NCBI GenBank assembly: GCA_046758965.1
Contig: JBHIBG010000008.1
Coordinates: 2,910 to 66,909 of the forward strand
DNA: 64,000 nucleotides
Direction of reading: 5' to 3'
Origin: Candidatus Methylomirabilia bacterium
GTDB lineage: Bacteria; Methylomirabilota; Methylomirabilia; Rokubacteriales; CSP1-6
Part shown: positions 15,683-21,441 of the stretch, one piece after another
Numbering within the stretch: the stretch's first letter is position 1
Layout of the letters: each line of letters begins with the position of its first letter
The notes under the pieces: generated by a model
Databases searched by the model: none
What the model was told of the DNA's origin: nothing
The model's input: only the letters and a program-made list of their open reading frames with translations
Made by a program: the position numbers and the translations under genes

Positions 15683-18313
15683 TTGGAGGCGGCCTACCGA
15701 GCCGGCCGCCTCAACGCGGAGCACCTCGACCTTTACCGGAGCTTCGCCGCTCGCTATCCCTTTCCCCTGGACCAGTTCCAGGTCACTGCGGTGCGCGCCA
15801 TCCTGGAAGCGGACTCGGTGATCGTGTCAGCGCCCACGGGAGCTGGCAAGACCCTGATCGCCGAGTTCGCCATCTTCCAGGCGCTGGCCCGTCGGCAGCG
15901 GATCGCCTACACCACGCCGCTCAAGGCGCTCTCAAACCAGAAGTACGCTGACTTCTGCCGCCAGTTCGGCGCGGCGGAGGTGGGGATTCTGACGGGCGAT
16001 GTCAAGGTGAACCCGCGGGCTCCTGTTCTCGTGATGACCACCGAGATCCTCCGGAACATGTTCTACACGGGTGGCGTCGAGGGCTTGGGATACGTCGTGC
16101 TGGACGAGTGCCACTACATCGGGAACGAGGGGCGCGGGACGGTCTGGGAAGAGATCATCGTCAGCGCCCCCAAGGAGGTGGCGCTCGTCGCGCTGTCGGC
16201 CACCGTCGCCAACATCGGCGAGATCGCGGAGTGGATCTCTCTGGTCCACCGGCCCATCGTTGTTGTCACCAACCTCGACCGGCCGGTGCCGCTCAGCTAC
16301 CTGGTCGCCGACCTCTCCGGAGAGCTCCATGCGATGGAGGCGGTGCGGCAGGGGACGGTGAGGCTCGATGGGGAGGGAGGCGCCATTCGGCGGCAAGGCC
16401 GGGCCCGAGGCCGCTGGCACGCGCGGCCGGTGGCGGACCCCACTGAAGTGATCGCCGGCCTGGAGGAACGAGGCTGGCTTCCCGCCCTCTACTTCATCTT
16501 CAGCCGCGCGGGGTGCGAGCGGGCCTTGGATGAGTACCTGGCCGAGGGGAAGCCGTTGCTTGCCCGCCCGCAGCGGAAGGAAGTCGACGCCACCATTCGC
16601 GAGGCGATTCAGGAGAGCCCGGGGATGGTCGAGTCCTCCCTGAACCAGACGATCTTCCAGGCTCTCGGGATGGGAGTGGGGCTCCACCACGCGGGCGTCC
16701 TCCCGAGCGTGAAGCGGCTGGTGGAGCGTCTCTTCGAACGCGGCCTCTGCCGCGTGGTCTTTGCCACGGAGACCATGAGTCTCGGCATTCACATGCCCGC
16801 CAAGACCGTCGTCCTCCAGGGCCTGAGCAAGCGCACGGACCGGGGCTTCCGGCGCCTCACCCATAACGAGCTGACCCAGATGGCCGGCCGCGCGGGGCGT
16901 CGGGGGATTGACACGGAAGGGAAGTGCATCGTCGCCCTGGACCGCCGGGATAGCCTCGAGGAGGCGCTCTGGACGGTCGACGGACCTTCCGAGCCGGTCG
17001 AGAGCCAGTTCCGCCTGGGCTACGGCTCGGTGACGCTCCTGCTCGCGACGACAAGCGACCCGGCGACGATCCGCCGCGTGGTGGAATCCTCCTTCGGCCA
17101 GCATCAGAATCTCAAGCGGATCCGCGAACTCGAGTCGGAGACGAGCCAGACCGAGGCGGCCCTGGCCGCGGTGCGCGCCTATGAGGCCCCGTGCGGTGAC
17201 TTCTCCCGGATCGGGCGCTACCGCCAGCTCCGCCAGGAGGTGGAGGCCCGACGGCGGCTTCAGGGTGGGGGCACCAGACGGCGCCAGGTCGCGCTCGCCC
17301 AGGCTGAGCCGGGGCGGCTGGTCCTGGTCCGCCGACGCGGCGGTGGGGGCCTGGCGGCCATCGTTTCCATCCACTCGAGAAGGGGTCACCGCGTCCTGGC
17401 GGACGCGCTCCTCCCCCACGGCTCGCTGGTCCGGATCAAGCCGGCGAACGTGAAGAAGATCTTCTGGGCCACTTCGCCTCTCGCGCTCCCCCGGGACTGG
17501 CGCCAGCGCCAGAGCGGGATCCTGGCGGAGCTGAGGAAGCTGTCTCTCTCCGACCTCCTCCAGCGGGAGGAAGGCCACGGGCCTGAGGCGAAGCTCGCCG
17601 CCATCGAGTGCCACCGCTGCCCGTGGGGGGCCCAGTCCCGGTGCGATCAGGCCTGGAAGGAGATCGAAAAGCTCGACACCAGGCTCGGCCAGCGGACCGA
17701 GATCCTCGAGGCGTTGAGGAACGCCTACTGGCAGGAGTTCTGTCGCGTCGTGGAGGTGCTCGAGCGCTTTGACGCGGTGAAGGCCGGGGCTCTCCTGGCC
17801 AAGGGGCGGCTCATCGCCTCCCTGCGCCACGACAACGAGCTCCTCGTGGCCGAAACGGTCCGGCGGGGGCTTCTCGCCGGCGCCAGCTTGGCCGAAGCCG
17901 CGGCCCTCTGCTCCTGCCTGATCGAGGAGGCGCGCTCCGGCGACGGCGCCGTTGTCCGGCGCTTCCTGAAACAGCGCTCCCGGCTCCGGAAGACGCTCCG
18001 CCAGCTCGAGACGGTTGGCGAGATTGTCCTGGAGGCCCAGCGCCAGCATCACCTGGGGCTTCCGTGCTCAGTTCAGCCCGGCTTCATGCCGGCGGTCTAC
18101 CGCTGGGCGTCGGGGGACGACGACTGGGCCGGGATCGTCGAAAACGACTTCGGTGGCCACGAGGGCGACCTGATCCGGGCCATGCGCCGGCTGATCGACC
18201 TGCTCCGCCAGCTTGCAGAGGCCCCTGAGGTGCTATCGCCACTCGGGACGCTTCTCGGCCAGGCCGCCCGGGCCATTGACCGCGGGGTCGTCCTCGAGTC
18301 CGCCCTGATCTAA
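15683..18313 (+). CDS. Ski2/HelY-like DExH RNA helicase with DSHCT C-terminus
   Basis: YPFPLDQFQ, APTGAGKT, TTPLKALSNQK, DECHY, LSAT, HHAG, QMAGRAGRRG, EGDLIRAMRRLIDLLRQL. Start uncertain. Confidence 0.92.
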   Translation: MEAAYRAGRLNAEHLDLYRSFAARYPFPLDQFQVTAVRAILEADSVIVSAPTGAGKTLIAEFAIFQALARRQRIAYTTPLKALSNQKYADFCRQFGAAEVGILTGDVKVNPRAPVLVMTTEILRNMFYTGGVEGLGYVVLDECHYIGNEGRGTVWEEIIVSAPKEVALVALSATVANIGEIAEWISLVHRPIVVVTNLDRPVPLSYLVADLSGELHAMEAVRQGTVRLDGEGGAIRRQGRARGRWHARPVADPTEVIAGLEERGWLPALYFIFSRAGCERALDEYLAEGKPLLARPQRKEVDATIREAIQESPGMVESSLNQTIFQALGMGVGLHHAGVLPSVKRLVERLFERGLCRVVFATETMSLGIHMPAKTVVLQGLSKRTDRGFRRLTHNELTQMAGRAGRRGIDTEGKCIVALDRRDSLEEALWTVDGPSEPVESQFRLGYGSVTLLLATTSDPATIRRVVESSFGQHQNLKRIRELESETSQTEAALAAVRAYEAPCGDFSRIGRYRQLRQEVEARRRLQGGGTRRRQVALAQAEPGRLVLVRRRGGGGLAAIVSIHSRRGHRVLADALLPHGSLVRIKPANVKKIFWATSPLALPRDWRQRQSGILAELRKLSLSDLLQREEGHGPEAKLAAIECHRCPWGAQSRCDQAWKEIEKLDTRLGQRTEILEALRNAYWQEFCRVVEVLERFDAVKAGALLAKGRLIASLRHDNELLVAETVRRGLLAGASLAEAAALCSCLIEEARSGDGAVVRRFLKQRSRLRKTLRQLETVGEIVLEAQRQHHLGLPCSVQPGFMPAVYRWASGDDDWAGIVENDFGGHEGDLIRAMRRLIDLLRQLAEAPEVLSPLGTLLGQAARAIDRGVVLESALI

Positions 18314-18420
18314 CTCCGCGCGACCAGCCAGGTGGTAGACTGGCTCTCCGTTGAGGGGTGGTCCTCGCGGCGAGCGCGATCTGAGAGAATGGATGGGGAA
18401 ATGCACGGGAGGAGAAGGCC

Positions 18421-18672
18421 ATGCCTGAGGAGAAGGTGATCGCTAGCTGGCGGTATCAGAAAGGGGTGCTGGATCCCAAGAGCGCCTCCCTCTGCTACCT
18501 CGCGGCGAACCTCGCTGCGGGAAACACCAACTGAGCGAAGCGCGACCTGGCAGGTGCCAGGGCCGCCGGCGCCTCCGAGGAGGAGATCCGGGAAGCCATC
18601 AGCTTCGCCATCCGGGCCAATGCCGCAAAGGCGCACAACGACATCCTGAAGGTCTGGGATGGCGAGCGATAG
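18421..18672 (+). CDS. AhpD/CMD-fold selenoprotein (83 aa, Sec at codon 38)
   Basis: Strong RBS (GGAGGAG) and ATG. The frame stays CMD-like across TGA 18532-18534 (LDPKSASLCYLAANLAAGNTN-U-AKRDLAGARAAGASEEEIREAI), and a SECIS-like hairpin follows. Confidence 0.85.
18546..18561 (+). promoter_or_regulatory. Bacterial SECIS element
   Basis: CCTGGC-AGGT-GCCAGG hairpin starting 11 nt after the UGA; the GCAGGT apex resembles the E. coli fdhF SECIS. Confidence 0.8.
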
Positions 18673-18681
18673 GGGGGATGC

Positions 18682-18999
18682 ATGGCAGAGATCAACCTCA
18701 CCGCAGCATTTTCCACCGTCCCGGCGGCAGAGGGTGAAGCGCTCAAGCAGATGCTGGTAGACACCATCGAGCAGTTGGCCCAGGAGGAGCGCAAGTTCAG
18801 CAGAGCCAAGGTCGTCTTCACCGAATCGGACGAGCGGTGCGGGCTCACCGCGGAGCTTGACGGCGTCAAGAAGGAGGGGATCCCTCTCCAGCTCGACCTG
18901 GACCTCATGGAAGATGCCAAGACCAACTCTGGGGCCCGTGCCCAGCTCAAAGAAGAGATCCGGCTCTACTTCCGGCGAGTCCAGGGCGAGGCTCAGTGA
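18682..18999 (+). CDS. Hypothetical protein (105 aa)
   Basis: RBS AGGGGGGA, coding-like composition, GTGA overlap with the next gene; no family recognised. Confidence 0.75.
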   Translation: MAEINLTAAFSTVPAAEGEALKQMLVDTIEQLAQEERKFSRAKVVFTESDERCGLTAELDGVKKEGIPLQLDLDLMEDAKTNSGARAQLKEEIRLYFRRVQGEAQ

Positions 19000-19712
19000 G
19001 AACCATGACGGGAGAGGACGGGCTCCTGCTCTACGTCTACCGGGGCCTCCTGTTCAAGGTGGCCGAGGGGGTGCAGGTGCCCAAGGCTGGCTCGCTCCAC
19101 TTCTGTCGCCACCTGGAATTCCATCCCGGGGAGGGCGTGCTGGAGTTGGGAACCGGCGTGGGCGTCGCCGCGGTCCTTGCCGCCAAGGCCGGGTGTCAGG
19201 TGGTCGCCACCGATATCGTTCCCCAGGCCGTTCGGTGCGCCCGGGAAAACGCGCTGCTGAACGGGGTCGGCGAGCGCGTGGAAGTCCTGCTCGGCGACTG
19301 CTATGACGCGGTGAGGGGGAAGAGCTTCGACCTCATCTGCAGCAATCCGCCCCAGATGCCAACCCCTGCCGGGCGGGATCGGGATGACTCCGTCGCCGCC
19401 GCGGACAATGGTGGAGTGGATGGCTGGGAGGTCCTGGACCGGGTCATTCAGGGCGCCCGGGCCCATCTGAACCCCGGCGGGCGGCTCGTCTTCACGATCT
19501 TCGCGTTCCTGGGACAGAAGGCGGCCTGCTCGAAGCTCGAGGCCGTAGGACTCAAGCCGAGCATTATCGCCGGCGAGGTGCAGGTCTTCCCGCGCATCGG
19601 CTACGAGCGGCTGGACCACATCCGGAGCCTGGACCGGGAGGGTGTGCTCCCGAAGACCGGCCTCCCCAAGACGGTCGAGCGCCTCGTGATCCAGGGCGAC
19701 AACGCGTCGTGA
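18996..19712 (+). CDS. Class I SAM-dependent methyltransferase, HemK/MTQ2-like
   Basis: VLELGTGVG motif I, ATDI, FDLICSNPPQ (NPP motif), GGVDG, HLNPGG. Confidence 0.88.
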   Translation: MRTMTGEDGLLLYVYRGLLFKVAEGVQVPKAGSLHFCRHLEFHPGEGVLELGTGVGVAAVLAAKAGCQVVATDIVPQAVRCARENALLNGVGERVEVLLGDCYDAVRGKSFDLICSNPPQMPTPAGRDRDDSVAAADNGGVDGWEVLDRVIQGARAHLNPGGRLVFTIFAFLGQKAACSKLEAVGLKPSIIAGEVQVFPRIGYERLDHIRSLDREGVLPKTGLPKTVERLVIQGDNAS

Positions 19713-20461
19713 AGCTCCTGATCGTCAACGCCGACGACTTCGGATTGACGGACGGAGTGAGTCGGGGGATTCTGGAGGCACATCGGAGGGGCGTCGTCAC
19801 CAGCACCTCGCTGCTCGTGAATCGGCCTCTGGATGTGGTGCTCCTGGCCCAGCTCAAGGCGTCCCGGCTCGGCGTGGGCCTTCATGTCAACCTCACTCTT
19901 GGTGCGCCGCTGTCGCGCCCGTCCACGGTGCCCTCGCTGGTGGGCTCCGAAGGGAAGTTCATCCGCGACGCCGGGCAGGTCGCGGCGCGGTCCAGACCGG
20001 ACGAGATCGAAACCGAGCTCAGGGCTCAGCTGACCGCCTTCATGACCCTCATGGGGCGTCTGCCCACCCACCTCGACAGCCACCACCACGTGGGCCGGCA
20101 CTCCCCGATCCGGGAGATCGTCCTCGGGGTGGGCAAGGAGCTCCGGGTTCCGATGCGAAGCCAGGATGAGGAAGTCCGACGCGCGGTGCGGGCGGCGGGG
20201 CTCAGGACGCCGGACCATTTCTTCGGGGAGTCCGGTCCCGACCCCTACTGGGCCACGGAGCGGACGCTCGCTCACCTCGCGGCGCTGCCCGACGGAGTCT
20301 CCGAGTTCATGACTCATCCCGGGTTCTATGATCAGGACCTCGCGTACAGCCGCTACGGCAAACAGCGCGAGGTGGAGCTCCAAGGGCTCACGGATCCCGC
20401 GGTCCGTCAGGCTGTCGAGCGCCACGGGGTCCGGCTCTGCCACTTCGGGGAGCTCGGGTGA
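19709..20461 (+). CDS. ChbG/YdjC-family carbohydrate deacetylase
   Basis: LIVNADDFG, GLHVNLT, PTHLDSHHH, EFMTHPG. Confidence 0.92.
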   Translation: MKLLIVNADDFGLTDGVSRGILEAHRRGVVTSTSLLVNRPLDVVLLAQLKASRLGVGLHVNLTLGAPLSRPSTVPSLVGSEGKFIRDAGQVAARSRPDEIETELRAQLTAFMTLMGRLPTHLDSHHHVGRHSPIREIVLGVGKELRVPMRSQDEEVRRAVRAAGLRTPDHFFGESGPDPYWATERTLAHLAALPDGVSEFMTHPGFYDQDLAYSRYGKQREVELQGLTDPAVRQAVERHGVRLCHFGELG

Positions 20462-21441
20462 GCCGCGAGGCGATCGTCAGCGTAGATGTCGGCGGCACCC
20501 TGATTGCCGGCGGTCTCGTGAGCCCTGAGGGGACGGTCTTGACCGAGGCCCAGGCCGGGACGCATGAGCGCGGGCCCGGGACTGCCCTGGTCACCCTCGA
20601 AGCGCTCCTGGATTCGCTGCTCTCGGCGGCGCCGCGGGAGGGCCTTCGCTTGCAGGGGATGGGCGTGGGGGTGCCCGGGGCCGTGGACGCCGACGAGGGG
20701 GTCGTGGGCGAGGATATCCAGAATGTCCCCGAACTGGCCTACGTGGCCCTCGCCGAGAGGCTCGAGGAACGCTTTGGCCTTGCCGCCTTCGTTGACAATG
20801 ACGTGAACGCCCAGGCACTCGGCGAGTGGCGGTTCGGAGCCGCGCGCGAAAGTAGGTCGCTGGTGCTCCTCTCCGTCGGCACCGGGGTCGGCGGAGGAAT
20901 CGTCCTGGATGGCAGACTGGTGCGGGGTGCGGCGGGCTACGGCGGCGAACTGGGCCACATTCCCGTGAAGTTCGACGGCCGTCCGTGCTTCTGCGGGGGG
21001 CAGGGCTGTCTCAAGGCCTACGTGGCCGGCCCGGACATCGCCGTCAACGCTCAGGAACGGCTGAAAAACGTGGCGGACTCTCGGTTGCTCGGGCTGGCCG
21101 GCGGCGACGCCCAAGCGGTCACGGCGGCCCATGTCTTCAGGGCCGCCGAGGCCGGGGATGCGCTGGCAGTCGCTCTGGTCGAGGAGGTCTGCCAGGCGCT
21201 GGGCGCGGGGCTCGGCGCCATCATCAACGGCCTCAACCCTGAGGTGCTGCTGGTCACGGGTGGGGTGGCGGAATCGCTCAAGCCCCTGGAGACCACGATT
21301 CGCCACTGGACGGAGCACTACACCTTTGCTCGCGCCCTCGGAGCCACCCGGCTCGAGGTGCTCTCCCTGGACAAGCGCGTGGCGCTCCGGGGAGGTGTTG
21401 CGCTCTTTCTGTACGAGATTGAGCGCCGGGCCAGAGCATGA
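20458..21441 (+). CDS. ROK-family sugar kinase
   Basis: VDVGGT, GVPG, DNDVNA, GTGVGGG, GELGH...CFCGGQGCL. Confidence 0.92.
   Translation: MSREAIVSVDVGGTLIAGGLVSPEGTVLTEAQAGTHERGPGTALVTLEALLDSLLSAAPREGLRLQGMGVGVPGAVDADEGVVGEDIQNVPELAYVALAERLEERFGLAAFVDNDVNAQALGEWRFGAARESRSLVLLSVGTGVGGGIVLDGRLVRGAAGYGGELGHIPVKFDGRPCFCGGQGCLKAYVAGPDIAVNAQERLKNVADSRLLGLAGGDAQAVTAAHVFRAAEAGDALAVALVEEVCQALGAGLGAIINGLNPEVLLVTGGVAESLKPLETTIRHWTEHYTFARALGATRLEVLSLDKRVALRGGVALFLYEIERRARA

Follow-up and report, generated by a model that had tools for sequence, protein, structure and literature searches.

AhpD-like selenoproteins have been known as a class since 2005, and AhpD/CMD-like proteins are among the commonest bacterial selenoproteins. 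To our knowledge, no function has yet been established for them. In the available sections of the Sargasso Sea and GOS reports, and in the tables of a 2026 review (PMC13188914), the selenoprotein families of AhpD type are given only as CxxU. The CMD domain-containing or ‘AhpD-like 2’ selenoproteins described in those sections share the PF02627 domain and the place of the selenocysteine (Sec) with the protein analysed here. They differ from it in the first cysteine of the motif, which they retain and which is replaced by asparagine in 160 of 161 sequences of its own family. A metagenome-assembled genome of the Methylomirabilota is predicted to hold 63 selenoprotein genes, according to the part of the same review that was available, so a selenoprotein-rich genome is expected here.

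Two related proteins provide the structural background. In Mycobacterium tuberculosis AhpD, the relay comprises Glu118, Cys130, His132, Cys133 and His137, and in TTHA0727 of Thermus thermophilus (PDB 2cwq) a serine occupies the position of Cys130. The latter protein has no known function and is taken to lack peroxidase activity (both in the accessible text of PMC3141380).

We analysed a gene within a stretch of 64,000 nucleotides from a Rokubacteria (Methylomirabilota) genome, hereafter the window. Its product is a minimal single-domain protein of the CMD/AhpD fold with 83 residues, which carries an N-x-x-U motif. The term ‘NxxU’ is absent from the texts of PMC13188914, PMC13326102 and PMC12013277. 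What appears to be new is the N-x-x-U form, which was found neither in the literature cited here, as far as it was accessible, nor among the NCBIfam models. Since the AhpD-like class itself is known, the interest lies in this variant rather than in the class.

The best NCBIfam match is the GSU3128 family (NF041047; E 5e-12, residues 4–78 aligned to a model of 84 positions). This family, described as a ‘distant AhpD homolog’, is of the same size and, like the Rokubacteria protein, comprises one small CMD-type domain whose Sec occupies the second motif position. However, the GSU3128 family is CxxU, and at 45.7 bits the Rokubacteria protein stays below the cut-off of 110; it is not a member of NF041047.

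The gene and its in-frame TGA codon

The features of the gene are as follows, in coordinates of the window.

18407..18414, + strand: Shine-Dalgarno site GGGAGGAG, 6 nt 5′ of the ATG
18421..18672, + strand: coding sequence of the CMD/AhpD-fold selenoprotein, 83 codons from ATG to TAG with the TGA read through (terminal TAG at 18670-18672)
18493..18495, + strand: codon of Cys25, the sole cysteine of the read-through product
18523..18534, + strand: active-site motif N35-T36-N37-U38 (N-T-H-U in the family)
18532..18534, + strand: TGA, the selenocysteine codon (codon 38)
18535..18545, + strand: spacer of 11 nt between TGA and hairpin, the same spacing as in Escherichia coli fdhF
18546..18561, + strand: SECIS-type hairpin with a 6-bp stem CCUGGC/GCCAGG and the loop AGGU (CCTGGC 18546-18551, AGGT 18552-18555, GCCAGG 18556-18561)

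A sequence-only reading had proposed this open reading frame with its ribosome binding site, a TGA at codon 38 and a CCTGGC-AGGT-GCCAGG hairpin exactly 11 nt past it. All of these elements are present, the hairpin being legible directly in the sequence. Upstream of most of the 20 orthologs listed, GGAGG-type sites are found as well. Standard gene callers had been suggested to miss the gene; public calls end the protein at residue 37 or begin a second fragment past residue 43. A scan for promoters and terminators between 18150 and 21700 returned nothing informative.

Conservation of the TGA was examined at several scales. In 61 related genomes, every one of the 63 matches to the read-through protein carries exactly one in-frame TGA. 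These matches comprise 27 full-length orthologs (E-values 8e-50 to 2e-36, 78–88% identity to the other genomes), two partial ones and 34 weaker ones with 38–45% identity. Two unpublished genomes (G009 and G023) supply two of the 27 ortholog rows and two of the 20 sequences in the ortholog set; no conclusion rests on them. In 160 further homologous loci, 80 from species genomes and 80 from metagenomes, codon 38 reads TGA at 157 loci; the remaining three have TGC (Cys). When 201 genomes from the phylum were sampled, one of them (G133) unpublished, 84 gave a match at E ≤ 1e-20, and 84 of the 85 match rows show TGA.

The codons on both sides of the TGA are under comparable constraint. Pairwise dN/dS amounts to 0.113 upstream (33 codons) and 0.103 downstream (40 codons; 1494 pairs). 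Homologs with Cys or TGA at codon 38 and with conservation on both flanks, as the sequence-only reading expected, are therefore what the 160 loci and the dN/dS values of about 0.1 display. The same TGA is seen in contigs assembled for four public runs (X1–X4) that belong to a single study; this DNA may derive from two of them.

The decoding machinery is complete in the source genome, an assembly of 3.42 Mb in 215 contigs with an estimated completeness of 95.6%. The genes selA (592 bits) and selB (369 bits) lie close to the gene of tRNA-Sec (selC, 72 bits) on contig 14, and selD (338 bits) shares the contig of the window, some 2.7 kb past the end of the window. All four components, which the sequence-only reading had named for a genome check, score above their curated cut-offs. 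The selD gene (contig 8, 69632-70570; locus L009) itself has an in-frame TGA within the motif A-C-A-G-U-A-S-K and thus encodes a Sec-containing SelD.

Judged from these comparisons, the gene is almost certainly real and routinely truncated in annotation, its apparent stop encoding selenocysteine.

The downstream hairpin and the decoding of the TGA

On the single sequence, the hairpin is unremarkable. The fold of a 66-nt segment has a z-score of −1.09 and is equalled by 30 of 200 shuffles, so the case rests on the relatives. The stem CCUGGC/GCCAGG hardly varies among 161 sequences, which contain 105 distinct 48-mers. The peptide L-A-G-A-R constrains the hairpin bases too, with the exception of third positions. 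At these, the entropy in 20 orthologs is 0 within the stem codons compared to 1.2–1.7 in the flanking codons. The Arg codon of the 3′ arm is AGG, a rare choice which is kept where it pairs with CCU.

Pairing is maintained across the family. In the 105 distinct sequences, 99.5% of the pair cells are paired, against 20–53% in slid controls, and the observed covariation score was reached by none of 500 shuffles. In three loci, the two arms read CCTCGC...GCGAGG; here, two synonymous substitutions turn GC into CG at one pair and so restore pairing. The covariation support comprises this one stem pair (two distinct sequences) and the loop-closing pair, where A-U is found 76 times, G-C 25 times and G-U three times; the latter pair, if formed, would leave an implausible loop of 2 nt. 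Four of the six stem pairs have no alternative standard pair, and three of these four are invariant. One of the three Cys forms, locus L054, reads GCCCGC in place of GCCAGG and has lost the hairpin, as expected if the constraint on the RNA is lifted once cysteine is encoded; the other two Cys forms retain it. Overall, sequence variation in the family indicates that the hairpin is kept under selection together with the UGA.

The hairpin resembles a described bacterial SECIS element. In E. coli K-12 fdhF, the TGA is followed by 11 nt and then by GGTTGCAGGTCTGCACC, which bears out the spacing and the GCAGGU apex that the sequence-only reading gave for this element. The two hairpins have the hexamer GCAGGT in common, with GGT at the same distance from the TGA. 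In contrast to fdhF, the stem of the Rokubacteria hairpin is perfect and has no bulged U. None of the 105 distinct sequences departs from G22 or G23 (numbering starts at the U of UGA), whereas 25 of them have C instead of U24; in the E. coli element, G23 and U24 are the SelB contacts. An Rfam scan of 17500-19500 at E ≤ 10 gave nothing SECIS-like, only chance matches to eukaryotic RNA families. We know of no general bacterial SECIS model in Rfam.

A selected UGA, an fdhF-like hairpin and the presence of selA, selB, tRNA-Sec and selD in the genome make insertion by SelB the most economical reading. UGA at codon 38 is very probably decoded as Sec by SelB and Sec-tRNA bound to the hairpin on the translating mRNA. 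The selenoprotein reading is thus supported by the codons of the homologs, by the Sec machinery and by the conservation of the hairpin.

Two other meanings of the TGA have to be weighed against it. Were the codon an ordinary stop, the locus would consist of a 37-residue fragment with untranslated DNA behind it, or of a decaying pseudogene. The public gene callers, with their ends at 37 and restarts after 43, and the unexceptional folding energy of the single hairpin sequence are in line with such a picture. Yet dN/dS remains at 0.10 across 40 in-frame codons past the TGA, the synonymous sites of the hairpin are constrained and a Pfam domain runs across the codon. Moreover, the exceptions to TGA among the 160 loci are all Cys codons, and we regard termination at this site as scarcely credible. 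A code change or near-cognate suppression could also place a standard amino acid here (Trp, Gly, Arg or Cys), and some database proteins of the family do show W (P0004, P0005, P0010, P0011), R (P0008) or G (P0009) at position 38. However, TGG, CGA or GGA occurs at codon 38 in none of the 160 DNA loci, so these letters may stem from alternative-code gene calls on short contigs or from rare variants. Furthermore, TGA serves as the terminal stop in four of the 20 orthologs listed, and the complete Sec machinery and the fdhF-type SECIS are in place. A standard amino acid at position 38 is accordingly very improbable.

Distribution and neighbouring genes

Close homolog loci are recorded as Candidatus Rokubacteria/Rokuibacteriota or as Methylomirabilota. 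By family within the Methylomirabilota sample, the gene was matched in 82 of 125 genomes of one Rokubacteria family (f1) and in the single sampled genome of a second family of the phylum (f13). The ten other families gave no match to this query in 74 sampled genomes. As sampled, the N-x-x-U family is almost confined to one family of the phylum. In public protein sets, the protein is cut at residue 37.

When 1.84 billion representative proteins were searched exhaustively with HMMER, this truncation was visible among the 61 matches obtained. The only full-length cluster with a high score (P0006, 16 members, one of them on the contig of L054) is a Cys form. Most other strong matches are fragments that end at or near residue 37 or begin past residue 43. 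Below these, a gap in score is followed by distant small CMD proteins at about 55 bits. The motifs of the latter include N-G-Y-C (P0060), N-A-P-G (P0077, Nitrospinota), G-H-E-H-G (P0062-P0064) and CxxC. As far as sequences tell, the first Cys, and even the second, is not fixed in this corner of the CMD family.

The hairpin-less Cys form L054 lies on contig 142 of genome G083 (locus L201), beside a glycosyltransferase and a sigma-70-type factor. This neighbourhood differs from the context of the Sec form and gives no functional hint. In G083 (92% complete), a selD gene with an in-frame TGA was found; selA was not detected, and selB and tRNA-Sec stayed below their cut-offs. A single missing contig could explain these blanks, because selA, selB and tRNA-Sec share one contig in the source genome.

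At three loci (L062, L068 and L099), the gene and largely the block of neighbours known from the Rokubacteria records appear under the titles Deferrimicrobiaceae or Verrucomicrobiia, which suggests that the contigs are mislabelled or mis-binned.

Four genes follow the selenoprotein gene on the same strand.

18682..18999, + strand: orf105, whose start lies 10 nt past the stop of the selenoprotein gene (9 nt separate the two), with a predicted fold resembling HPF
18996-19712, + strand: methyltransferase of the HemK2/MTQ2 family (TIGR00537, 104 bits against a cut-off of 87), a conserved neighbour with overlapping ends
19709-20461, + strand: YdjC, a conserved neighbour with overlapping ends
20458-21441, + strand: ROK kinase, a conserved neighbour with overlapping ends

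In 80 genome loci, orf105 is found in 71, the methyltransferase and YdjC in 65 each and the ROK kinase in 54. TIGR00537 is described as archaeal/eukaryotic-type, yet this methyltransferase stands in a bacterial operon with YdjC and ROK. The neighbours (a protein with an HPF-like fold, a protein methyltransferase, YdjC and ROK) point to no redox pathway. Their conservation may reflect shared ancestry rather than shared function, since it is seen within one bacterial family only.

In many loci, orf105 overlaps the stop of the selenoprotein gene, and it is a probable operon partner. Its 105 residues match no Pfam family, and homologs are seen only in the Methylomirabilota. Cys53 is present in all 68 copies listed. 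The model (pLDDT 90.6) shows a beta-alpha-beta-beta-beta-alpha arrangement. Its best fold matches, which are weak, are the ribosome hibernation factors HPF/YfiA (E 5e-3, TM 0.42–0.55; TM 0.55–0.62 in the Atlas). On the strength of this predicted structure, a ribosome hibernation factor is a lead, not a membership.

Fold, active site and possible chemistry

The sequence-only reading had placed CMD-like sequence on both sides of the TGA, in a protein of the CMD/AhpD fold in which Sec stands for the second cysteine of CxxC and Asn for the first. The Pfam CMD domain PF02627 matches residues 12–78 and so spans the TGA, with 41.1 bits against a gathering cut-off of 23. The AF2 model (pLDDT 83.8) consists of a short N-terminal beta-hairpin and three helices (19–32, 36–48 and 53–79). 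The best Foldseek matches are the small CMD proteins TTHA0727, 3bey, RclX and gamma-CMD at TM of about 0.68, with E of only about 0.07 for this short chain. These results agree on the fold, and the phmmer alignments agree on the motif. Against 2ouw (CxxC), U38 and N35 align with the second and the first Cys, and D42 and S23 with the distal His and the Glu, respectively; against TTHA0727, U38 aligns with the lone Cys of G-S-E-A-C.

Conservation delimits the active site further. Five residues (C25, T36, D42, H72 and D74) never change in the 161 sequences; N35 is shared by 160 of them and H37 by 159. Position 23, the site of the relay Glu, is variable (S, Y, F, A or N). Cys25 is the only cysteine of the protein, as had been noted earlier along with the missing first Cys of the motif; relatives outside the N-x-x-U family have V or I at its position. 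The motif G-N-T-N-U given in the sequence-only reading is correct for this copy but not for the family, whose motif is G-N-T-H-U. This strain has N37 where 159 sequences have His, and its copy may be atypical for this reason.

Of the described structures, TTHA0727 is the closest, being the best match in sequence (E 2.5e-4) as well as in structure (TM 0.68). Its G-S-E-A-C aligns with G-N-T-N-U and the first Cys is likewise substituted. It differs in having Cys instead of Sec and, according to the accessible part of the source, in being a hexamer of 137-residue chains. With M. tuberculosis AhpD, as described in the accessible text, the selenoprotein shares the motif-bearing helix-turn-helix, in which Sec38 corresponds to Cys133 and the H37 of the family to His132. 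However, it has only one domain, which is of far smaller size; a variable residue (S/Y/F/A) stands in place of Glu118, Asn takes the place of Cys130 and Asp that of His137.

Measured against the AhpD core, the second, reactive Cys position is thus filled by U38 and the first, resolving Cys is missing. The relay Glu and the distal His are missing too, with the variable residue 23 and the invariant D42 in their places. Three of the five relay residues are therefore lost, and the AhpD model TIGR00778 gave no match at E ≤ 1.

Sec38 would occupy the reactive second-Cys position of the AhpD C-x-x-C, where the second helix has its N-terminal end. With the first Cys replaced by Asn, the relay Glu variable and the distal His replaced by Asp, the dithiol/proton-relay cycle of AhpD appears impossible for this protein. 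As the vicinal Cys and the Glu/His relay are missing, a cycle with one Sec and a remote or external thiol is the most economical alternative. In such a cycle, the selenolate of Sec38 would attack an oxidised substrate, which may be a peroxide, a sulfenate or a disulfide. The resulting selenenic acid or selenenylsulfide would then be resolved by a thiol which is not part of the motif. Candidates are Cys25 (perhaps of a neighbouring subunit), Cys53 of orf105 or a small thiol. Judged from helix periodicity, Cys25 more likely faces away from helix 2. A peroxidase role is an analogy only, because TTHA0727 is taken to lack this activity and three of the five relay residues are missing. We hold the one-Sec redox protein with its resolving thiol outside the motif as a plausible but still tentative reading, a little short of an even case. 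Sec decoding combined with this mechanism is the best explanation overall, and as a blend of the two it is somewhat probable.

Sec38 might instead act without catalysis, as a ligand or carrier of a metal or metalloid together with H37, D42, H72 and D74. These residues are invariant or nearly so, the proton relay of AhpD is dismantled and a methyltransferase is encoded two genes downstream. In addition, the AhpD-like domains of two fusion selenoproteins, the arsenite methyltransferase ArsM_AhpD_UU (E 1.6e-10) and MduS (E 4.4e-10), score about as well as GSU3128. However, that methyltransferase is of the HemK2/MTQ2 type and, with only 28.8 bits, stays below the arsenite methyltransferase cut-off of 263, and the conserved block contains no metal transporter or resistance gene. 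H37 is moreover lost in this strain, and for metalloid handling in particular no specific support was found; a ligand role is rather unlikely. In a third arrangement, the protein would be no enzyme of AhpD type but one half of a dedicated selenenylsulfide pair, its lone Sec38 reacting with Cys53 of the translationally coupled orf105. The pair would then connect the ribosome or translation factors with the redox state of the cell. We consider this pairing distinctly improbable.

The N-x-x-U branch is also of broader interest. In this well-conserved branch, Sec alone is retained: Asn stands at the resolving position, and a new invariant Cys is found in another part of the chain. The branch may serve as a natural test of whether selenium frees this fold from a vicinal thiol. 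The relation of N-x-x-U to C-x-x-U can be likened to that of one-Cys to two-Cys peroxiredoxins.

The source genome also encodes a paralog with about 40% identity and one in-frame TGA (contig 25, 7806-8021, minus strand; locus L040, 1438-1737). Here, a hairpin GCUUCGC-GGCU-GCGAAGC lies about 10 nt past the TGA. In contrast to the N-x-x-U protein, the paralog has the motif G-C-T-S-U, reaches TIGR00778 (28.5 bits against 27.8) and carries Val at the position of Cys25. The weaker matches in most related genomes (38–45% identity, one in-frame TGA each) are possibly of this type.

A last observation concerns residue 37. A minor contig of run X1 (depth 9.45, compared to 55.7) has C instead of A at 18529, which changes Asn37 to His37. 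As this contig restores the consensus His, a close relative carrying it co-occurs in the sample.
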